This document shows positions 8,916 to 17,784 of a stretch of DNA of 64,000 nucleotides, piece after piece. Where the stretch lies: positions 8,857 through 72,856 of the forward strand of contig CANQXN010000001.1 in NCBI GenBank assembly GCA_947627815.1, read 5' to 3'. Made by a program: the position numbers and the translations under genes. Position 1 is the stretch's first letter. Each line of letters opens with the position of its first letter. Origin of the DNA: an uncultured Clostridia bacterium. Lineage in GTDB: Bacteria > Bacillota > Clostridia > Oscillospirales > CAG-272. Under the pieces are notes generated by a model, which was not told the origin of the DNA, did not search any database, and was given only the letters and a program-made list of their open reading frames with translations.

Positions 8916-9875
8916 ATGAAACTTGTCATTACAGATGCCGCGACAGTGACAAACGGCGATGTCGATCTTTCCTGTTTCTCGGATTTCGGCGAGGTGATTT
9001 CTTACCCCTTGACAGCGCCTGATTTGCTTGCTCAACGGGTGAAAGACGCCGATTTTGTTCTCTGCAATAAATCCCGTATGACGCGCGAGGTGATGGAGGG
9101 AGCCAAACATCTTAAATATATCGGATTGTTTGCTACGGGCTATAACAATATCGATACAAGCGCCGCCAAAGAATTGGGCATTACGGTATGCAACGCCGGG
9201 AGTTATTCCACCGACGCCGTGGCGCAGCTGGTCTTCTCTTTCCTGCTTCATCATGCGTCCCGCGCGGCGGAATACAACAACTTTGTTCAGCAAGGCAGTT
9301 GGATCAAAAGCGCGACTTTTTCTCCCTTTGTCTTTGATATGACAGAACTTGCCGGCAAAACGATGGGCATTTTCGGCTTTGGCAGCATCGGCAAAAAAGT
9401 GGCACGCATCGCGCTTTCCTTCGGTATGAAGGTTTTGGTGACCACACGGACGGTACATCAGGAAGAGGAAGCGGCCTATGGCGTTTCCTTTGTGGATTTT
9501 GACACCCTTCTCTCCTCTTCCGATGTCATTACCGTTCATTGTCCCCTGACCGATCGCACCGCCGGATTGTTCGACCGCACGGTCTTTTCAAAAATGAAAC
9601 AGGGCGCCTATTTTATCAACACTTCCCGTGGCGGCGTTTTGGTGGAAAGCGCTTTGGCAGAAGCGGTCAAAAGCGGGCATCTGTCTGGCGCCGGCATCGA
9701 TGTCCTGACGACCGAACCCATGCTGCCGGATTGTCCCTTGCTCGGAATTGATGCCATCACCATTACCCCGCATATTGCCTGGGCGCCGCGAGAAACCCGG
9801 GAACGGCTGATCGGCATTGTATATGACAACATCAAGGCGTTTTTAGACGGGCATCCTGTTCATGTGGTATCATAA
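8916..9875 (+). CDS. D-isomer-specific 2-hydroxyacid dehydrogenase (glycerate/hydroxypyruvate reductase-like)
   Basis: GIFGFGSIGKKVA NAD-binding motif; VHCPLT...INTSRGG...DV...EP...TPHIAW catalytic-domain pattern. Confidence 0.85.
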   Translation: MKLVITDAATVTNGDVDLSCFSDFGEVISYPLTAPDLLAQRVKDADFVLCNKSRMTREVMEGAKHLKYIGLFATGYNNIDTSAAKELGITVCNAGSYSTDAVAQLVFSFLLHHASRAAEYNNFVQQGSWIKSATFSPFVFDMTELAGKTMGIFGFGSIGKKVARIALSFGMKVLVTTRTVHQEEEAAYGVSFVDFDTLLSSSDVITVHCPLTDRTAGLFDRTVFSKMKQGAYFINTSRGGVLVESALAEAVKSGHLSGAGIDVLTTEPMLPDCPLLGIDAITITPHIAWAPRETRERLIGIVYDNIKAFLDGHPVHVVS

Positions 9876-9884
9876 CAAAAGTAC

Positions 9885-9917
9885 GGCTCCCGACTTTTTG
9901 GCCGGGAGCCTCTTTTG
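9885..9917 (+). terminator. Rho-independent terminator
   Basis: GGCTCCCG...CGGGAGCC followed by TCTTTTG. Confidence 0.75.
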
Positions 9918-9959
9918 TAGGTTTCTCATAAAAAAATACGGCAAAATGACTTTGTACCC

Positions 9960-9988
9960 TTGAAATTCAAGCGGGGATATGATACAAT
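9960..9988 (+). promoter_or_regulatory. Sigma-A type promoter of the AAA_28-CYTH gene
   Basis: TTGAAA (9960-9965), 17-nt spacer, extended -10 TGaTACAAT (9980-9988). Confidence 0.6.
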
Positions 9989-10001
9989 AAGAAAGGTTGG
10001 G

Positions 10002-10037
10002 ATCCGCCCGGATCTGGGGCGGATTCTTGATTTTTTT
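10002..10037 (+). promoter_or_regulatory. Terminator-like hairpin in the 5' leader (possible attenuator)
   Basis: ATCCGCCC (10002-10009) pairs with GGGCGGAT (10017-10024) around a 7-nt loop, followed by TCTTGATTTTTTT. It lies between the predicted TSS and the start codon. Confidence 0.45.
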
Positions 10038-10065
10038 GCAAATACGCCGAATGGAAGAGAAAAAA

Positions 10066-11166
10066 ATGACTGTTACGAAAATTGTGATTACCGGCGGGCC
10101 ATGCGCCGGAAAAACCACGGCAATGAGCTGGATTCAAAACGCGTTTTCACAAAAAGGTTACACGGTTTTGTTTGTTCCCGAAACGGCAACCGAACTCATC
10201 ACAGGCGGCGTGGCGCCCTGGACTTGCGGAACCAATTTAGAATATCAAAAATGCCAAATGCGCTTGCAGATGGAAAAGGAACGGCTCTTTGAACAGGCGG
10301 CAAGAACCATGCCGGACGAAAAGATTCTGATCGTATGCGACAGAGGCGCCCTTGACAACAAAGCGTATATGACGCAAGATGAGTTTGCGCAGGTGGCGGC
10401 TTATGTTGGCTCCAATGAAGTGGAACTGCGGGATCAGTATGACGCCGTTTTTCATCTTGTGACGGCAGCCAAAGGCGCTACTGAATTTTATACGACAGCC
10501 AACAACGCGGCGCGCACCGAAACCGTGGAACAGGCGGTGGCCTTGGACGATAAACTGATGGCGGCCTGGGCGGGTCATCCGCATTTTCGCATTATTGATA
10601 ATTCTTGCGAATTTGAAGATAAAATGAAGCACCTGATCGGGGAGATTTCCTCCTTCCTCGGCGAGACGGCGCTTTATGAAGTGGAACGCAAATTCTTGAT
10701 TGAATATCCTGATATCTCCTGGCTGGAGTCGCTGCCCAACTGTCGGCGGGTGGAGATCATTCAAACCTACTTAAAGACGGTCAATCATGATGTCGTACAC
10801 CTGCGCCAGCGCGGGATCGACGGGCATTATATTTATATTCAGACGATCAAACGCGAGGTGGATAACAATAAGCGCGTGGAAATTGAGCGCCGGCTCTCAC
10901 AGGGCGAATATTTACGGCTCCTCATGGAGGCGGATTATACGAAGCGGCAGCTGCGCAAAACGAGATATTGCCTGATCAGCGGGGCTTTGAATATCGATAT
11001 AGATATTTATCCCTTCTGGAGCCATCAGGCCATCTGCAAAACCAAGCTCAGCGATGAGAACGCCACCATTCTCTTCCCTGACAAAGTCAAGGTCATACGG
11101 GAAATCACGGGCGACCCCGCCTATAAAATGTCATCGCTCGCGGCCTTGAATCTTGATAATAATTGA
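10066..11166 (+). CDS. AAA_28 P-loop ATPase fused to a CYTH (triphosphate tunnel metalloenzyme) domain
   Basis: N-terminus KIVITGGPCAGKTT (Walker A) and ILIVCDRG (Walker B-like). C-terminus YEVERKFLI (ExExK CYTH signature). Start chosen at ATG 10066 (GGAAGAG RBS); ATG 10051 is an alternative. Confidence 0.8.
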   Translation: MTVTKIVITGGPCAGKTTAMSWIQNAFSQKGYTVLFVPETATELITGGVAPWTCGTNLEYQKCQMRLQMEKERLFEQAARTMPDEKILIVCDRGALDNKAYMTQDEFAQVAAYVGSNEVELRDQYDAVFHLVTAAKGATEFYTTANNAARTETVEQAVALDDKLMAAWAGHPHFRIIDNSCEFEDKMKHLIGEISSFLGETALYEVERKFLIEYPDISWLESLPNCRRVEIIQTYLKTVNHDVVHLRQRGIDGHYIYIQTIKREVDNNKRVEIERRLSQGEYLRLLMEADYTKRQLRKTRYCLISGALNIDIDIYPFWSHQAICKTKLSDENATILFPDKVKVIREITGDPAYKMSSLAALNLDNN

Positions 11167-11170
11167 ATGA

Positions 11171-11211
11171 AAAAGGAGCCGGAACGGCCTGACCGTTCCG
11201 GCTCCTTTTTC
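11171..11211. terminator. Bidirectional terminator between convergent genes
   Basis: GGAGCCGGAACGG / CCTGA / CCGTTCCGGCTCC flanked by an A-run and a T-run. Confidence 0.85.
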
Positions 11212-11213
11212 TA

Positions 11214-11672
11214 TCAGGAATACATGCTGTTGGTACTCATATAGTCATAAATGGCTTTGCCGTGTCCCTGCTCCTCTGTCTGAATGTGATTTAATACATC
11301 GCGAAGCGGCTGTTGGGCAAATTCAAAGACGCAGGTATCATACAGATGGGAGGCGTGCTTCTCCATGGTAAGAAGATCGTTGCAAAGATAGCAGTCGTTT
11401 GTCTTGTTTTCGGTTTCGCCGGTATAGGTTTGGCTGAAGGTGGGCTGACTTTTGCTTCCGCTGGATATGGTCGGCACATTGCCCGCTTTGATGTCATTGA
11501 TCATATCCAGATGGTGCTGTTCTTCCGACGCAATGCGGGAGAAAAGATCGCGCAGTTGGGGGTCTTTGGCCGCCGCGGCGTGTTTGGTGTATTTGTCGGT
11601 GCAAAGTTTTTCCGATGTGCTGAGATCCTTTAATAATTCGGTCTCTTTGGTCGTCAATTGCATTCTGATCAC
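11214..11672 (-). CDS. Spore coat protein, CotF family
   Basis: Two Coat_F-like repeats: TKETELLKDLSTSEKLCTDKYTKHAAAAKDPQLRDLF and NDLLTMEKHASHLYDTCVFEFAQQPLRDVLNHIQTEEQ. Confidence 0.75.
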   Translation of the reverse strand: MIRMQLTTKETELLKDLSTSEKLCTDKYTKHAAAAKDPQLRDLFSRIASEEQHHLDMINDIKAGNVPTISSGSKSQPTFSQTYTGETENKTNDCYLCNDLLTMEKHASHLYDTCVFEFAQQPLRDVLNHIQTEEQGHGKAIYDYMSTNSMYS

Positions 11673-11747
11673 CTCTTTGCCATGAGTATTGCCGGGTTTG
11701 GAAAGGTCTATTCAGGCGATCGGATATAATTATTTTTTACTTGCATA

Positions 11748-11781
11748 GAAAAACCCCCGCCTTTATGGGCGGGGGTTTGTG
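11748..11781 (-). terminator. Terminator downstream of the lipoprotein gene
   Basis: CCCCCGCC (11754-11761) / GGCGGGGG (11768-11775), with a U-run on the minus strand (plus-strand GAAAAA). Confidence 0.75.
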
Positions 11782-11801
11782 GTTTTACGCATTAGGAGAC
11801 A

Positions 11802-12929
11802 TTACGGAGCAACATATTCGTAGAAGATGAAGTAGCCGTTGGGGTTCTTGCAAAGCTCACCGGTCTGATCATCCGCTTCGACGACAATGACAAACTCATA
11901 TGTCTCGCCGGAAACAAACTCGGGCATATCAACGATTTCAAAGTAAAGCTGATACCATTCTTTGGTCCGATAATTTTCGACTTCATATTCCTTGCCGTTA
12001 ATATACAGCTTGCTGATATGCGTATGAGATACACCGTAATCGGTAATCTCTGCACCTGTGTCATCCGTTCCCGCAGACTTATCACCAAACTGATTTTGAG
12101 ATCCGAAAGTGAAGTGCAGGCAGTTCGGAGCGGTCGCCTCATCGCCGAAGAGGAATTTATCGTGATACGGCAATTCGCTGCGGTCATGGAAGTTGGGAAC
12201 CATCTCTTCGATGTTGCCATAACTTGAGACAATCGGAGAAGGAGCGGTCCACCAGTTTTCTTCGTCCATGTTCCAGAAGTAGAGGCTGGTGCTGTAGGTT
12301 GTCGTCTCTTCATCGCCGGTGATAAAGAGATAAAATTCATAGCGGTGACCGGGTTCGGGCGTCCATCCTTCAGGAGCAACCCAAATCTCCCACCAGTTCG
12401 CGGTTTCATAGAAGGCTCTTTCGTACAGCGTGCATTCGGGATTCTCCGCAGGAGAGGTGGCGGTGCCGTGATCTACAATGTAAAGACGGTCAAATACTGT
12501 ATGGGAAAGCCCCGGCTTACCGTCTGCATCGTTTACGAAGTTGCCGCCTTCAGACTTTATCGTGAAATAAATTGAATTTTTGTGTTTAACGCTGTTTGTA
12601 TCCGTATGGTCGCCAACTGTTATCGCCATGTGCTGCAACAGATAGTCACGCTCTTCAGCGTACATATATTCTTCAGCGGCGTTGGTAGGTTCAATCGGCG
12701 GGATCACAATCGGATCAGTGGTGGTTTCTGCCGGCTTCTCCGTGGTATTGGCCGGCGCCTCCGTCGTATTCGACGGGACAGACGAGGTGGCAGCGGGCGC
12801 TTGACTGCTGCTCCCGGACGGATTGGTAGATTCGGACGCTGTTGTTTCATCGCCGTTGCAAGCTACAAACGCAAGACAAAGCGACAGGACAACGACCAGA
12901 AATACCACAAGGAATTTGAGGTTTTTCAT
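11802..12929 (-). CDS. Lipoprotein of unknown function with S/T/P-rich linker and two tandem homologous domains
   Basis: Signal peptide plus lipobox (LCLAFVAC) and a low-complexity linker. Two segments share the patterns (I/L)xFT, LYI, W(W/Y)x(I/L)(W/Y) and GxxYEF. Confidence 0.7.
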   Translation of the reverse strand: MKNLKFLVVFLVVVLSLCLAFVACNGDETTASESTNPSGSSSQAPAATSSVPSNTTEAPANTTEKPAETTTDPIVIPPIEPTNAAEEYMYAEERDYLLQHMAITVGDHTDTNSVKHKNSIYFTIKSEGGNFVNDADGKPGLSHTVFDRLYIVDHGTATSPAENPECTLYERAFYETANWWEIWVAPEGWTPEPGHRYEFYLFITGDEETTTYSTSLYFWNMDEENWWTAPSPIVSSYGNIEEMVPNFHDRSELPYHDKFLFGDEATAPNCLHFTFGSQNQFGDKSAGTDDTGAEITDYGVSHTHISKLYINGKEYEVENYRTKEWYQLYFEIVDMPEFVSGETYEFVIVVEADDQTGELCKNPNGYFIFYEYVAP

Positions 12930-13027
12930 ATGTACCTTCCTTTCAAATTATTGCGGCTTCACGAATCTATGATAGCCGCTTTTTCCGTTGCCGCCAAGGC
13001 AAACGAAAAAATAATCTTTACAAGGAT

Positions 13028-13056
13028 ATTATACATACACAAGCGCGGTTTGTCAA
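13028..13056 (-). promoter_or_regulatory. Consensus sigma-A promoter of the lipoprotein gene
   Basis: On the minus strand: TTGACA (13056-13051), 17-nt spacer, TATAAT (13033-13028). Confidence 0.7.
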
Positions 13057-13145
13057 TGATAAATTGTCTTTTCTTATGCACATTGTATCAGTCGCACTAA
13101 TTTTACATGTAACTTTTGTCTATTTTCACCAGCGAAAAGACGGCA

Positions 13146-15836
13146 TTATGTATGAGATTGGACGGAAAAGAGCTTTTTGATCGGAAGCGCGCGGAATTTT
13201 TGCCAGAATGACAGCGTGCTGTAATAAAAATCGGCGAGATACTGTTTCATGATCGCTTCTTCCGCGCCTGTGTGACAGCATTGAAGCATGACGGCAAATG
13301 CTTTCGGTTTTCTCTTCAGCGGGATTGTCATGAGATACTGCCGGAAGCCCTGTTCGGCGATGCTCTGCTGTTTTTTTATGCGAAACAGGTAAAGAAGATA
13401 GGGCGTCATCAAGCGTAACATTTCTGTTTCCTGTATCACATTGGAGGAAAAGATGAATTCCACCGTTTCCTTTTCAAAAGAGCTATCCCATTGGGGCGAC
13501 AAGAGCCTGTAAAAAAGATCTGTGGCATCGGCCTCTTTGACGGCGACCTCCGCCATAAAGGCGAGAAGATAGGGCAAGAAACGCTGATTCCATTCTTTAT
13601 CAAAACGGCCGGACAGCAATACCGCCGCAAAGTCGGCATGACTTCGGATTTCGAGGAGCAGTTTGCGGTAGTCGTCTTCGGTCGGCTGTGTGTGATAATT
13701 CCGCAGCCGAATGCCGATACCTGCTGCCATAAAAGCAAGACCGAGATCGGGATGCACATGGGACAAAAGGACATAAATTTTGTAGAAATCATCTGTATTG
13801 TTGATATAATAATCGTATATGTCGAGCGGCGACTGTTTGGCGATCACATCAAACAAGCGCCGCGCCAGACTGTCGCTGCCAAGACGATCTACCGAGGCGG
13901 CCAATAACATCAGGAAGTGTCCCGCTTCCTCGATCTGATGAACCGGTTTTAAGGAATCGAGATAATCTTGCAGTCTTTTTTCAAAAATCCCGCTTCCCTC
14001 TTCATCGCAAAGATATATGGCAGAAAAGAAATACTCCAATTCGTTCCGCGAGGCATGAGGCTCGGACAAAAAACGGAGTCTGTCCATTTCGTTCAAAAAT
14101 CCGATGTGGCTTTCCTCGCGTCTGAGGACGGCGTCGATGGCGGCCGTTTCCTCGGGGAGCGCGGAGCAGACTTTGCTATATTCCTGCAAGGTGGTTTCGC
14201 TGTAGTGTCCCGGTTCGGCATAAAACGCGACAATCGCGGCCGCAGCCTCGCTTTTATCCGCGATTTCCCGCACGACGGAAAAAACAAAGGCGTCGTCCGG
14301 GTGAAATTCTTCATCGGTTATCGCTTTTCCTATCGCCGGCACAATGACCTTTTCGGCAAACTCCGCCGGGAGAGAGGCGGTTTTCCGGCAGATGTCAAGA
14401 AAGGCGTTTTCCTCCGCCGTTAAAAGCGCGGACATGATTTTCCGGCAGGCTTCCCAAACGGCGTTTTCTCCCAAGGTAAAGGTCAATTTGTCGTAGCTGT
14501 CGGCAATCATATACATCAGGATACAGATTTCATTGGTGCCGGACAGCCCGTCCGCCCGATTGATATTTTCCGCCAGATAGGCGTCCAGTGTGTCGGTTTC
14601 CATGAGATGGGTCGGCAAATACTCTACTAAGAAAAAGAGTTTATCCACGATTTCTTTATAATACTCGCGGAGAGAAAGCGCGTCATTGACGCCGATTTCC
14701 TGATGGTGACTGTCGATAAAGGCGCGGATATCTTCTTTTGTCGTTTCATCGGTATGGCGGAAAATATAGGCGATGACAGGAAGAAGCGATTCGTTGCAGC
14801 CGAATTTAAAATCGGATTTTTTGATTTCCCGCCAAAGGCTGTCCGCTACCCAAGGCAGTTGGGCGGCGTCGGCAAGACCGATCTTGTTGAGAAAATATTG
14901 GATCTCATGAGCCGAATCAAACCAGGCAAAATCGTGTTCCAGCAGATAATAGACACCGGCGGCGGAAGAGACAGGCAGATGATATTCCTCCATGATCCGC
15001 TCCGTTCCTTCGAGAATGGGCGCGGTTTCTTCCGCATTTTTCAGAAAGACATCGACAATGGAGGTGGTGTATTTTACCGCTTCAATATCTTCGCAGGAAA
15101 TGCCGCCGCGATTATCGATGACAAAGCTTCCCGCTTCAATATCCTGCGCCACCTGCAAATCCACACTGGGCGCTGCGCAGATCAGCTTGCAATCTCTCAC
15201 CTTTTCAAAGGCGTAAGAACAAAGCGTAATCCGGCTTTTGATGTTTTTGGGGAGACAGCAATGCAGTCCGTAAAACCAATATTTCAGCGAAGGATATTTA
15301 TCGTTAAAGATAACAATGCGTCGATTGTCATACGAGTCAATGACCGCTTGCACCAAGTTGATCAGTGTCTTGCGACGCCCCTGTGAAAAAAACTTATGAA
15401 TCTCCGGCTGGCTCAAACGAAATTGCGGATGCGGAAAAGAGACGGCAGGCAGGGCTTCCCCGGCTTGCAAAGCCTTTTCTTCCTCTTCCGTCAAGCTGTT
15501 TTTAAAGCAGTTGTTGATAACATAAAGAAAAGGCGAAAAATCCTCGCTTTTTTCTTCTACCAAAACATGAAGGATGCCGCGGGGCGTGTCATTTTCCGAA
15601 AGATAATACACACCGCTTTTCGCAAGCGCGATTCGGTTGTCCGGCAGATCGAGGCAGTATATACCGGCAAGCGTTTCGTTATCTTCGTCTTCCGGCAACG
15701 GTTCTTGCCGGACAGGCAGTGTGACAGCGGAAAGAATGAGCCGGATATCCTCTTCCGAAAACGCGGCGGAAGCGGCGGTTATATTCTTTTCTCCTTGATC
15801 GGTATGCCATGACACATAGATCATTTGCTCGGCCAT
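13146..15836 (-). CDS. Large (896 aa) cytoplasmic protein of unknown function
   Basis: Long uninterrupted ORF. Start moved to ATG 15836 (MAEQMIYVSW, preceded by GGAAGGGAGAA RBS). No TM segment or catalytic motif that I recognise; predicted to be mostly helical. Confidence 0.75.
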   Translation of the reverse strand: MAEQMIYVSWHTDQGEKNITAASAAFSEEDIRLILSAVTLPVRQEPLPEDEDNETLAGIYCLDLPDNRIALAKSGVYYLSENDTPRGILHVLVEEKSEDFSPFLYVINNCFKNSLTEEEEKALQAGEALPAVSFPHPQFRLSQPEIHKFFSQGRRKTLINLVQAVIDSYDNRRIVIFNDKYPSLKYWFYGLHCCLPKNIKSRITLCSYAFEKVRDCKLICAAPSVDLQVAQDIEAGSFVIDNRGGISCEDIEAVKYTTSIVDVFLKNAEETAPILEGTERIMEEYHLPVSSAAGVYYLLEHDFAWFDSAHEIQYFLNKIGLADAAQLPWVADSLWREIKKSDFKFGCNESLLPVIAYIFRHTDETTKEDIRAFIDSHHQEIGVNDALSLREYYKEIVDKLFFLVEYLPTHLMETDTLDAYLAENINRADGLSGTNEICILMYMIADSYDKLTFTLGENAVWEACRKIMSALLTAEENAFLDICRKTASLPAEFAEKVIVPAIGKAITDEEFHPDDAFVFSVVREIADKSEAAAAIVAFYAEPGHYSETTLQEYSKVCSALPEETAAIDAVLRREESHIGFLNEMDRLRFLSEPHASRNELEYFFSAIYLCDEEGSGIFEKRLQDYLDSLKPVHQIEEAGHFLMLLAASVDRLGSDSLARRLFDVIAKQSPLDIYDYYINNTDDFYKIYVLLSHVHPDLGLAFMAAGIGIRLRNYHTQPTEDDYRKLLLEIRSHADFAAVLLSGRFDKEWNQRFLPYLLAFMAEVAVKEADATDLFYRLLSPQWDSSFEKETVEFIFSSNVIQETEMLRLMTPYLLYLFRIKKQQSIAEQGFRQYLMTIPLKRKPKAFAVMLQCCHTGAEEAIMKQYLADFYYSTLSFWQKFRALPIKKLFSVQSHT

Positions 15837-15974
15837 AGTGGATTCTCCCTTCCTATTCCGCCTCTGTGGACACTTCCACAGAGTACACACCATTATATCA
15901 TAAAATAATGCATTCGTCAATTGATTTTAGAAAGAAGATAACGCAAAGGGGCAAAATGGATCGAAATTCATATG

Positions 15975-16008
15975 CAAACAGGAGGGGGCTTGTCTCCCCC
16001 TCCTGTTT
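15975..16008 (-). terminator. Hairpin downstream of the Cys-rich gene (probable terminator)
   Basis: CAAACAGGAGGGGG / CTTGTC / TCCCCCTCCTGTTTG, a 14-bp stem. The U-tract on the minus strand is weak. Confidence 0.55.
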
Positions 16009-16018
16009 GGCTCGTCAT

Positions 16019-16288
16019 TCAGCATACGCCGCCGCATCCGCCGTTTTGTGAATCGGTCTGACAGGGATCATCGGCGTTTTGGTTATCCGCGTTTTCGCCG
16101 GATGGACAGCAGCAGTCTGCGGCTGATTTGTCGCCGCTGCCCTCCCCCTGCGGTTGACAGGGGGCGCACTGACAGCTTTTTTTCTTTTTACGGCACATTT
16201 TTCCGATCATGGTGCTGATCAAGAGGATCATGGCGGCAATCAGAGACGCCCACAGCATGATTTTGCAAAGTTTGGCTTTCGATTTCAT
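16019..16288 (-). CDS. Small Cys-rich single-pass membrane protein (89 aa)
   Basis: Start at ATG 16288 (AGGGA RBS). MKSKAKLCKIMLWASLIAAMILLISTMIG is the TM segment. Then RKKKKSCQCAPCQ...DCCCPSG...GGCGGVC, with 12 Cys in the last ~58 aa. Confidence 0.6.
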   Translation of the reverse strand: MKSKAKLCKIMLWASLIAAMILLISTMIGKMCRKKKKSCQCAPCQPQGEGSGDKSAADCCCPSGENADNQNADDPCQTDSQNGGCGGVC

Positions 16289-16413
16289 GGTTCCATCCCT
16301 TTCCCTATTGTATTCACATAATAGTATATCCCTAAAAGGACAAATTACTATTTGAAAAAAATTTTTGTTATGCCTTGATTTTGGCGTCCTTGTGTTTTTT
16401 GGGGATATGAAAA

Positions 16414-17784
16414 TCAAAGGTTGCCGGCAAGAAACGCTTTATAGCCGAGATAGGTTTCATAGACATCGGCTTTGGCGACGATTTCCATGGGGGCGTGCAT
16501 ATTGAGTACCGCGATGCCCGCGTCTATGACATTCATATTATACTTGCCGAGAATGTAAGCGATTGTGCCGCCGCCGCCCTGATCGACTTTGCCGAGTTCC
16601 GCGGTCTGGAAATGGACATCCGCTTCATCCATGACCCGACGGATCCACGCCACATATTCGGGGTTGGCGTCATTGGAGCCGGATTTGCCGCGCGATCCGG
16701 TATATTTGTTGAAAACAATGCCGGCGTTGAGATAGGCTGCGTTTTTGGCGTCATTCACCTCGGGGAACAGCGGGTCAAAGCCCGCGCTGACATCGCTGGA
16801 AAGCATTCTGGCGTTGGCCAGCGCTTTTTTCAGAGAAAGATAGGAAGTATCGCCGGATTTGCAGAGCAGTTCAGCGATGATGTTTTCAAAAAACACGGAG
16901 GAAGCGCCGGTAGCGCCGACACTGCCGATTTCTTCTTTATCTACTAAGATGCAGCAAGTGGTATATTCCTGCGCGCCGGCATCCAGAAGGGCGCGCAGCG
17001 AGGTATACCCGCAAACTCTGTCATCGTGGCCGTATCCCGCGATCATGCTTCTGTCAAGTCCGTAGTCTCGGCTGGGGCCGGCAGGCACCACTTCAATTTC
17101 AGCGGAAAGAAAATCTTCTTCCTCTATGCCGTATTTTTCCTTGAGCAACTTCATGATATTGGCTTTGACGGTATCTTTTTCTTCGCCTGCCAGCGGAATC
17201 GAGCCGACCATAACATCTAACTTTTCGCCTTCTATGACAGAGGCGGCGGGCTTGTTCATCTGATTGCCGGAAAGATGGATCAGAAGATCGCTGATCCCCA
17301 CGACAGGATCGCCGTCGGCGTCGCCGATACTGACATCGACCGTCGAGCCGTCCTTCTTGCAGACAACGCCGTGAAGCGCCAGCGGAATGGTCACATACTG
17401 ATATTTTTTGATTCCGCCGTAATAGTGCGTGTCCAAGAGCGCAAACCCGTTGGATTCGTAAAGCGGATTTTGCTTCAGATCGAGCCGAGGCGAGTCAATG
17501 TGGGCACCAAGAATGCGCATTCCTTCGGTCAAGGGCTTTTCGCCGATCACAAACAGCGCGATGTTTTTTCCCATATTGACAAAATAGACTTTATCGCCCG
17601 CTTTGAGCGAAGAAAGACGATCGAAGGGGACAAACCCGGCCGCTTCGGCAAGCGCGACGCTTTCTTTTACACAGAGGCGTTCGGTTTTGCTCTTGGTGAG
17701 GAAGTCGGCATATTCTTTACCGAAGGTAAAGATCGCTTCCCTTTTTTCATCGGAAATGTCTTTCCAGATATTTTTTGCGTACAT
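16414..17784 (-). CDS. M18-family aminopeptidase
   Basis: MYAKNIWKDISDEKREAIFTFGKEYADFL...GAHIDSPRLDLK...GYGHDDRVC...VDKEEIGS...NMHAP. Start moved to ATG 17784 downstream of GGAGGT. Confidence 0.85.
   Translation of the reverse strand: MYAKNIWKDISDEKREAIFTFGKEYADFLTKSKTERLCVKESVALAEAAGFVPFDRLSSLKAGDKVYFVNMGKNIALFVIGEKPLTEGMRILGAHIDSPRLDLKQNPLYESNGFALLDTHYYGGIKKYQYVTIPLALHGVVCKKDGSTVDVSIGDADGDPVVGISDLLIHLSGNQMNKPAASVIEGEKLDVMVGSIPLAGEEKDTVKANIMKLLKEKYGIEEEDFLSAEIEVVPAGPSRDYGLDRSMIAGYGHDDRVCGYTSLRALLDAGAQEYTTCCILVDKEEIGSVGATGASSVFFENIIAELLCKSGDTSYLSLKKALANARMLSSDVSAGFDPLFPEVNDAKNAAYLNAGIVFNKYTGSRGKSGSNDANPEYVAWIRRVMDEADVHFQTAELGKVDQGGGGTIAYILGKYNMNVIDAGIAVLNMHAPMEIVAKADVYETYLGYKAFLAGNL

Follow-up and report, generated by a model that had tools for sequence, protein, structure and literature searches.

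A divergent GAP1-N2 protein without linked GTPase genes at a fixed chromosomal site in uncultured gut Clostridia

GAP1 (GTPase-associated protein 1) has been introduced as the "third component" of DO-GTPase-centred systems (Kaur, Burroughs, Iyer, Aravind, eLife 2020, PMC7159879). According to that paper, the GAP1 gene usually follows a DO-GTPase gene directly or is fused to it; GAP1 co-evolves with DO-GTPase dimers and probably binds them, a direct contact having been proposed from the co-evolution. The same paper places systems of the N2 type together with FNIII-repeat proteins and with tubulin, HSP70/GrpE or kinase modules in mobile, variable neighbourhoods, and gives them an inferred membrane-proximal role. 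Here we analyze an 896-residue protein encoded in a 64-kb stretch of DNA (the window) from an uncultured Clostridia bacterium. The family to which we assign it is already known from Pfam models; what is new is a divergent GAP1-N2 lineage that is unlinked to GTPase genes, fixed in the chromosome and accompanied by different constant neighbours.

Homology of the 896-residue protein to GAP1

The coding sequence lies on the minus strand at 13146..15836, with its stop codon at 13146-13148, as supported by the list of open reading frames (ORFs), the intact orthologues, the ratio of nonsynonymous to synonymous substitution rates (dN/dS) and a full-length profile alignment with hhalign. The product is acidic. 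A sequence-only reading of this DNA had described it as a protein without transmembrane segment, P-loop or nuclease or peptidase motif, and our analyses agree: the maximum Kyte-Doolittle (KD) mean over 19 residues is 1.32, the motif check found no P-loop, and no nuclease or peptidase family of Pfam, NCBIfam or PADLOC matched. NCBIfam and PADLOC returned nothing meaningful for the protein. The same reading had proposed, by eye and with low confidence, that the N-terminus recalls GAP1-N2. The pattern it quoted, with IY(T/S)S, a serine-rich stretch, R.GN..IH..V and a proline-containing segment, is the genuine GAP1-N2 consensus and aligns to residues 2-130 of the window protein.

Direct comparison with Pfam bore this out only in part, as GAP1-N2 itself was not matched and GAP1-M (PF20014) was the single match at E<=10, below threshold (residues 153-232, 16.7 bits, E 0.0086; gathering score 24). 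A word-indexed search of 5.8 billion proteins recovered only four clusters, at 100, 53, 35 and 35% identity, and word-indexed searches with an alignment of the subfamily (A1) or a mixed alignment (A2) added nothing to these four. Only an exhaustive search of representatives reached the canonical family. In this search, phmmer against 1.84 billion cluster representatives yielded 91 proteins with E values down to 7e-31. About ten of them are close, full-length relatives (29-38% identity), and the remainder are proteins of ~900 residues (18-29% identity), to which the alignments begin at residue 2-3. The closest canonical relative had no match in a tblastn search of plasmids.

The relatives carry the family signatures that are faint in the window protein. 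We scanned 53 proteins with Pfam, comprising the window protein, four subfamily members and 48 other phmmer hits. GAP1-N2 (PF20013) was found in 48/53 (best E 3.8e-34) and GAP1-M (PF20014) in 41/53, and no Pfam model matched the C-terminal region of any of the 53. Within the subfamily, two members exceed the gathering score of GAP1-M (P0008 and P0010, with 28.1 and 24.7 bits), all close members scanned have GAP1-M except a 250-residue fragment (P0011), and GAP1-N2 appears below threshold in P0006, P0007 and P0011 (14.6, 14.7 and 18.3 bits).

Profile comparisons extend the homology over the entire protein. A hidden Markov model (HMM) trained on residues 1-140 of 62 canonical proteins scores 35.4 bits over residues 2-130 of the window protein. 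With hhalign, the subfamily profile aligns to the canonical profile over 859 columns (1-888 versus 2-910) with a probability of 100% and an E value of 1e-78. Each region also aligns on its own: the N region with 99.6% (E 2e-23), the M region with 99.8% (E 3e-28), the middle region with 100% (E 1e-39) and the C region (residues 641-896) with 97.8% (E 8e-13), and cross-region controls stayed below 2%.

The protein can be divided accordingly into three parts, all on the minus strand. The N domain (residues 1-130, 15447..15836) is a divergent GAP1-N2 domain with a predicted longin-type fold, identified by the 35-bit HMM match, hhalign, AlphaFold and Foldseek. The M domain (residues ~140-250, 15087..15419) is GAP1-M with a predicted alpha/beta, DENN-like fold, based on the sub-threshold PF20014 match, hhalign and a model whose predicted local distance difference test score (pLDDT) is above 87 throughout. 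Residues 251-896 (13149..15086) form a predicted all-alpha solenoid that is equivalent to the middle and C-terminal regions of the canonical proteins by AlphaFold, Foldseek and hhalign, and terminates in a conserved tail, ...YY..L..WQK..A...KKLF. The earlier description of the protein as mostly alpha-helical therefore holds for residues ~250-890, but not for residues 1-95, which AlphaFold models as a beta-sheet domain.

Since the exhaustive phmmer search, the Pfam scan of the relatives, the N-domain HMM and the region-wise hhalign comparisons agree, we classify the 896-residue "orphan", on sequence grounds, as a complete but divergent member of the N2-type GAP1 proteins introduced in Kaur et al. 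2020. The by-eye call of GAP1-N2 was correct.

Partner genes, genomic setting and residue losses

To compare the window with canonical systems, 37 metagenome loci encoding canonical proteins were retrieved, and gene order was read from those with long flanks. The canonical order is HSP70, HSP70-vWA, a ~1020-residue protein, a zinc-ribbon DO-GTPase, a ~95-residue protein with four transmembrane segments, a second DO-GTPase, GAP1-N2 and a membrane-anchored LRR_5 protein; Pfam confirmed it for locus L013.

None of this is seen around the window gene. An HMM of DO-GTPases (families PF19975/PF19993) built from the canonical loci recovered every copy in loci outside its training set, with E values of 1e-113 to 1e-222, and had no match in the 64-kb window or in the 11 orthologous loci L001-L011 (best E 0.17). 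The only ORF of the window or these loci to combine G1, G3 and G4 motifs is PBP1 in L011, where the match is spurious. The subfamily loci scanned for GTPases amount to about 190 kb including the window. P-loop proteins encoded in the window are AAA_28/CYTH, RapZ-like, RecN-like, DnaX-like, ABC ATPase and CoaE proteins, and HSP70 or tubulin partners were found neither in the window nor in the 11 related loci; kinase and FNIII-repeat partner genes are likewise missing from the neighbourhood. The sequence-only reading had seen no NTPase partner beside the gene and had suggested a solo or divergent family member. Both points stand: the motif and DO-GTPase HMM scans place no such partner next to the gene, no DO-GTPase or other TRAFAC GTPase is encoded in the window or the 11 orthologous loci, and the canonical invariants are lost, as described below.

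The subfamily is small, with about 10 clusters from uncultured gut Clostridia. It is present in seven GTDB-representative genomes, all of them metagenome-assembled genomes of uncultured Clostridia or "Lachnospiraceae" and several named for animal-gut samples, and additionally in several Logan and ENA contigs. The genes at the subfamily loci are arranged as PBP1, TspO, CoaE, SLT, M18 aminopeptidase, a small membrane protein, the GAP1-like gene and usually a lipoprotein gene. In the window, the neighbours are PBP1, TspO, CoaE, SLT, M18 peptidase, the small transmembrane protein, the lipoprotein, CoatF and AAA_28/CYTH. The upstream synteny is identical in 10/10 loci, down to 32% identity of the GAP1-like protein, and the subfamily is vertically inherited at one fixed chromosomal site. 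The sequence-only reading had also pointed to conflict systems; for the window copy, a conflict or defence role finds no support, as the neighbourhood is a fixed housekeeping one and PADLOC finds nothing.

The missing partners are accompanied by changes in the protein itself. Columns with a conservation of 95% or more among 62 canonical N domains were taken as the canonical invariants. T8, Y40, the LPY.PT loop, G78, Y81, R83 and G85 are lost across the subfamily. R83 is the arginine of the R.GN motif, and its column maps to the predicted beta4-beta5 turn in the AlphaFold model. N86 is present in 55% of subfamily members and absent from the window protein. Retained canonical positions are Q4, S23, L64, H90, F111, L115, E119, L129, P130 and P196, together with Y7. 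The subfamily has conserved motifs of its own (INNCF, PQFKLSQ.EI.KFFS and LKYWFYGIHCCLP), and 79 columns of its alignment are invariant. All ten orthologues (10/10) are intact, with 891-957 residues and no internal stops, and the two pairs in which dS is unsaturated have a dN/dS of 0.165-0.177. The GAP1-like gene is under purifying selection and is not decaying.

Because the linked genes and the invariant residues are lost together, GTPase coupling has probably been given up in the window subfamily. One could argue instead that the protein still works as a component of a DO-GTPase conflict system whose GTPase and effector partners are encoded elsewhere and act in trans. Such a split system would fit the maintenance of the whole N-M-C architecture under purifying selection and the reported co-evolution and probable binding of GAP1 to DO-GTPase dimers; the GTPase scan, moreover, covered about 190 kb, namely the subfamily loci including the window. 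However, every canonical locus examined has a linked DO-GTPase and none of the subfamily loci does, T8, Y40, R83, G85 and the LPY.PT loop are gone throughout the subfamily, and the gene sits in a fixed housekeeping block rather than in a mobile, variable context. We consider a split system unlikely.

Several observations on the canonical loci stand apart from this argument. In L014 (2949-10004), L013, L031, L035, L036 and L039, up to three tandem pairs of a ~95-residue, four-transmembrane protein and a DO-GTPase lie upstream of GAP1; these loci also encode an HSP70-vWA fusion and, directly downstream of GAP1, a BspA-type membrane-anchored LRR_5 protein. In the parts of Kaur et al. (PMC7159879) that were consulted, LRR_5 does not appear as a partner domain. 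Among the subfamily loci, L003 encodes a 152-residue zinc-ribbon and LRR_5 protein (9528-9986, minus strand) about 3.6 kb downstream of the GAP1-like gene, and the LRR_5 domain that it has in common with the protein following canonical GAP1-N2 may be a coincidence.

Predicted fold of the N-terminal head

The full-length AlphaFold model, made from nine sequences, has a pLDDT of 77.6 and a predicted TM-score (pTM; TM, template modelling) of 0.45. It begins with a beta-rich N domain, continues with an alpha/beta domain and consists only of helices from residue 254 to the end. With this model, Foldseek against the PDB retrieved only generic HEAT/ARM solenoids (TM-score ~0.14), and residues 1-300 were therefore modelled separately. 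The resulting model (37 sequences) has a pLDDT of 93.1 and a pTM of 0.91.

In the N domain, AlphaFold places strands at residues 2-12, 15-22, 58-64, 68-79 and 82-95 and helices at residues 28-37, 102-105 and 117-124. The longin topology is beta-beta-alpha-beta-beta-beta-alpha-alpha, and the predicted N domain follows this order (beta1-beta2-alpha1-beta3-beta4-beta5-alpha2-alpha3). In the predicted second domain, helices alternate with four strands.

The best PDB match of residues 1-300 is a chain of the lysosomal folliculin complex (6nzd_H, E 2.5e-4, probability 0.98), followed by TagF of Acinetobacter baylyi (9t0n, E 2.7e-3, probability 0.91, TMq 0.36) and a chain of the active FLCN GAP (GTPase-activating protein) complex (8dhb_J, E 4.6e-3, probability 0.92). 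These three alignments span 344-403 columns, gaps included, against the 300-residue model, and all three matches are two-domain proteins of the same kind. Lower matches include GATOR1 Nprl chains and the Lst4 longin domain; all others cover ~100 columns with low probability. At the level of sequence, no DENN, uDENN, folliculin or longin family of Pfam matched the window protein at E<=10, and sequence-profile searches of the PDB with alignments A3 and A4 returned noise only. Together, these models suggest that residues 1-300 fold into a longin plus a DENN-like domain. The DENN/longin-like character that had been proposed from the letters alone is supported at the level of the predicted fold, with a pLDDT-93 model, a longin topology, and two folliculin-complex chains and TagF as the top three matches.

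FLCN, NPRL2 and SMCR8 are longin-domain GAPs with the catalytic arginine in the longin domain, and longin-type GAPs have an arginine finger and a GP motif (PMC12290439). The DENN domain is a five-stranded alpha/beta three-layer sandwich (PMC3521125). Longin domains have been described as PAS-like GTPase platforms, and, as of 2012, DENN modules had been reported solely from the DENN proteins of eukaryotes. Zhang et al. 2012 describe no bacterial or TagF homologues of DENN, and "DENN" in the text of papers on the type VI secretion system refers to author names. A longin plus DENN-like head of GAP1 is not mentioned by Kaur et al. (PMC7159879) and was not found in the literature searched.

It is tempting to speculate that the N and M domains throughout the GAP1 family, and thereby those of the window protein, are genuine bacterial homologues of the eukaryotic longin plus DENN module of GTPase regulators, with TagF as another bacterial member, a proposal that we regard as tentative and, on balance, doubtful. 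If it were true, relatives of DENN modules would exist in prokaryotes and would already have worked there with dedicated GTPases, and the Clostridial subfamily would be a natural GTPase-uncoupled derivative in which the module was kept for a different, membrane-tethered role. A confirmed longin plus DENN head would predict the contact between GAP1 and the GTPase and would bear on the origin of eukaryotic DENN/folliculin-type regulators.

Proposed role and comparison with known systems

We then propose a model for the function of the window protein. In our view, it is fairly likely to be a GTPase-uncoupled, cytoplasmic, membrane-proximal scaffold derived from GAP1, with the small membrane protein encoded next to it as the best candidate for a partner. 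In canonical systems, the longin/DENN-like head would be a natural candidate for binding the DO-GTPase dimer. In the window subfamily, the protein would no longer serve as a GTPase-coupled sensor or adaptor of a conflict system; its head may dock onto a partner, and the solenoid may provide a protein-binding platform. The preferred partner of the head, by analogy, would be a cytoplasmic part of the small membrane protein, and this contact would hold the scaffold at the membrane. An unlinked GTPase could also act as a partner.

The small membrane protein is chosen as the partner candidate because it is always co-encoded and because of the analogy with TagF and TagZ. The function of TagF requires TagZ, a small single-pass protein with a short basic cytosolic N-terminus, one transmembrane helix and a variable tail (bioRxiv 10.64898/2025.12.08.692957). 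In the window, the gene upstream of the GAP1-like gene (16019..16288, minus strand) encodes 89 residues with a basic N-terminus, one transmembrane helix (maximum KD 2.40), a KKKK stretch and a polar, Cys-rich tail (11 Cys in the protein), so the Cys-rich small protein noted earlier as the upstream same-strand neighbour is a single-pass membrane protein. A small protein of 73-104 residues is encoded directly upstream of the GAP1-like gene in every locus (L001, L003, L005-L011, L049 and L050). The orthologues have a basic N-terminus, one transmembrane helix, a polybasic stretch after it and a variable tail. This tail has many cysteines in the window and in L001, L006/L009 and L011, whereas in the lineage of L005, L007 and L010 it terminates in a conserved EWERG motif. 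The small protein is under purifying selection (dN/dS 0.09-0.24), has been gene-called independently in public assemblies and matches no Pfam family.

Several points weigh against this model. The topology of the small protein is ambiguous, with both flanks of the transmembrane helix being basic; its conserved adjacency could simply reflect the shared ancestry of a syntenic block; and the GAP1-like gene is set off from the small-protein gene by a hairpin and by a promoter of its own. As for the family assignment, the window protein has no match to GAP1-N2 (PF20013, gathering score 24 bits) at E<=10, its GAP1-M match is below the gathering score, and the canonical profile set was picked for its similarity to the query. 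This makes the scores somewhat too high, but the bias does not reach tens of orders of magnitude. The GTPase scan covered the window and 11 loci, and a DO-GTPase may be encoded elsewhere in the genome. Finally, we found no experimental work on any GAP1 protein in the literature.

The signals around the gene define its start and its transcription. The protein begins with MAEQMIYVSW from the ATG at 15836, which is supported by a GGGAG ribosome-binding site at 15845-15849, 8 nt upstream, by the "MA.Q" N-terminus common to all orthologues and by an independent public gene call with the same 896-residue product. The mechanical longest ORF (13146-15920, 924 residues) would start at a TTG at 15920, which we rejected because this codon is part of the -35 hexamer in the promoter that serves the gene; calling the longest ORF automatically would mis-start the gene and add 28 codons (15837-15920, minus strand). 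This promoter is of the sigma-70 type (15892..15920, minus strand; TTGACG-17-TATAAT with a TG extension) and matches the consensus at 11/12 positions in the scan. Upstream of it, a probable terminator separates the small-protein gene from the GAP1-like gene (15979..16005, minus strand), read directly as a 10-bp G+C-rich hairpin, CAGGAGGGGG...CCCCCTCCTG, followed by TTT; the terminator scan detected the opposite-strand version of this hairpin. Downstream, the scan found no terminator between the GAP1-like stop codon and the lipoprotein promoter, a perfect sigma-70 promoter (13028..13056, minus strand; TTGACA-17-TATAAT, 12/12). The unit of the two genes is closed by a strong terminator hairpin at 11751..11778, with no strand assigned, which is a perfect palindrome with a 12-bp stem, AAACCCCCGCC...GGCGGGGGTTT. 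With an A-run on one side and a T-run on the other, it looks bidirectional and lies between the lipoprotein and CoatF-like genes. An Rfam scan of 11000-17000 gave only sub-threshold matches on terminator hairpins, several of which are explained by the hairpin at 11751-11778.

The downstream gene (11802..12929, minus strand) encodes a lipoprotein of 375 residues with a signal peptide, a lipobox (...FVAC), a Ser/Thr/Pro-rich linker and a ~290-residue domain that matches no family; the whole protein is likewise without a Pfam family. It had been called a repeat lipoprotein, of which the lipoprotein part holds, but BLAST self-comparison found no internal repeat. The gene is found downstream in 5/7 informative loci, with orthologues in L001, L003, L006 and L011. 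At least one lineage does without the lipoprotein: it is absent downstream in L007. One might take the small protein and the lipoprotein for leftovers of canonical partners; this we rejected, since the canonical loci have, in the corresponding places, four-transmembrane ~95-residue proteins and a membrane-anchored LRR_5 protein of unrelated architecture.

The GAP1-like protein might also belong to a cell-envelope module with the small membrane protein and the lipoprotein, perhaps including PBP1A and the SLT lytic transglycosylase, and organize or regulate a membrane or wall process from the cytoplasmic side. The conservation of gene order from PBP1 to the lipoprotein down to 32% identity of the GAP1-like protein, the missing terminator between the GAP1-like and lipoprotein genes and the membrane-proximal role inferred for GAP1-N2 systems would agree with this. 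Nevertheless, synteny among related genomes is by itself thin evidence that the genes work together, L007 does not have the lipoprotein, every gene is preceded by a promoter of its own, an extracytoplasmic lipoprotein cannot directly contact a cytoplasmic protein, and by sequence Pfam, NCBIfam and PADLOC connect the protein to no known divisome or elongasome factor. We judge such a module to be quite improbable. That the gene is a decaying remnant of a lost conflict system without current function, as the lost partner genes and invariants and the rarity of the family (the word search found 4 clusters among 5.8 billion proteins, the exhaustive one about 10 representatives) might suggest, is very hard to reconcile with 10/10 intact orthologues, a dN/dS of 0.165-0.177, 79 invariant columns, strongly conserved subfamily motifs, and a near-consensus promoter and ribosome-binding site.

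Further downstream, a 389-residue ORF (9997-11166, plus strand), which is probably shorter and starts from an internal ATG, has an N-terminal P-loop and is convergent with the CoatF-like gene at 11214-11672. Its L001 orthologue (78% identical) matches AAA_28 and, faintly, CYTH, as in a kinase-like NTPase fused to a triphosphate-tunnel domain.

A whole 900-residue protein has stayed under selection in the subfamily long after the linked GTPases and several invariant N-domain residues were lost, which shows that the scaffold can have some role away from its canonical neighbourhood. The subfamily also offers a natural comparison for finding the residues that serve GTPase coupling, and a gut-Clostridia "orphan" can now be named as a divergent GAP1-N2 family protein.

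Among known systems, TagF resembles the predicted head in having an alpha+beta N domain and an alpha/beta C domain, and the architecture of TagZ resembles that of the small protein encoded upstream of the GAP1-like gene, which is an analogy only. In contrast to the window protein, TagF has ~320 residues and no solenoid, and no sequence similarity between them was detected; moreover, the window has no type VI secretion genes, and its host belongs to the Gram-positive-type Clostridia. The folliculin/FNIP pair (likewise SMCR8/C9orf72 and NPRL2/3) shares with the window protein the predicted two-domain head, in which a longin topology precedes an alpha/beta domain, and the GAP1 parent family is, like these regulators, defined by GTPase association. 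The differences are that sequence similarity is not detectable, that TM-scores reach only 0.30-0.34 with a large root-mean-square deviation, that the window copy is without a GTPase partner, and that its C-terminal solenoid has no counterpart in these regulators.

Canonical GAP1-N2 is the closest described relative. The homology is collinear across the N, M, middle and C regions, the length is similar (~900 residues), and both proteins end in a KLF-type tail. The host is a member of the Firmicutes, a phylum among those given for N2 systems by Kaur et al. (PMC7159879). Unlike the canonical systems with their mobile, variable neighbourhoods, the window subfamily sits beside housekeeping genes at a fixed site, and its constant neighbours are instead a small single-pass membrane protein and, usually, a lipoprotein.

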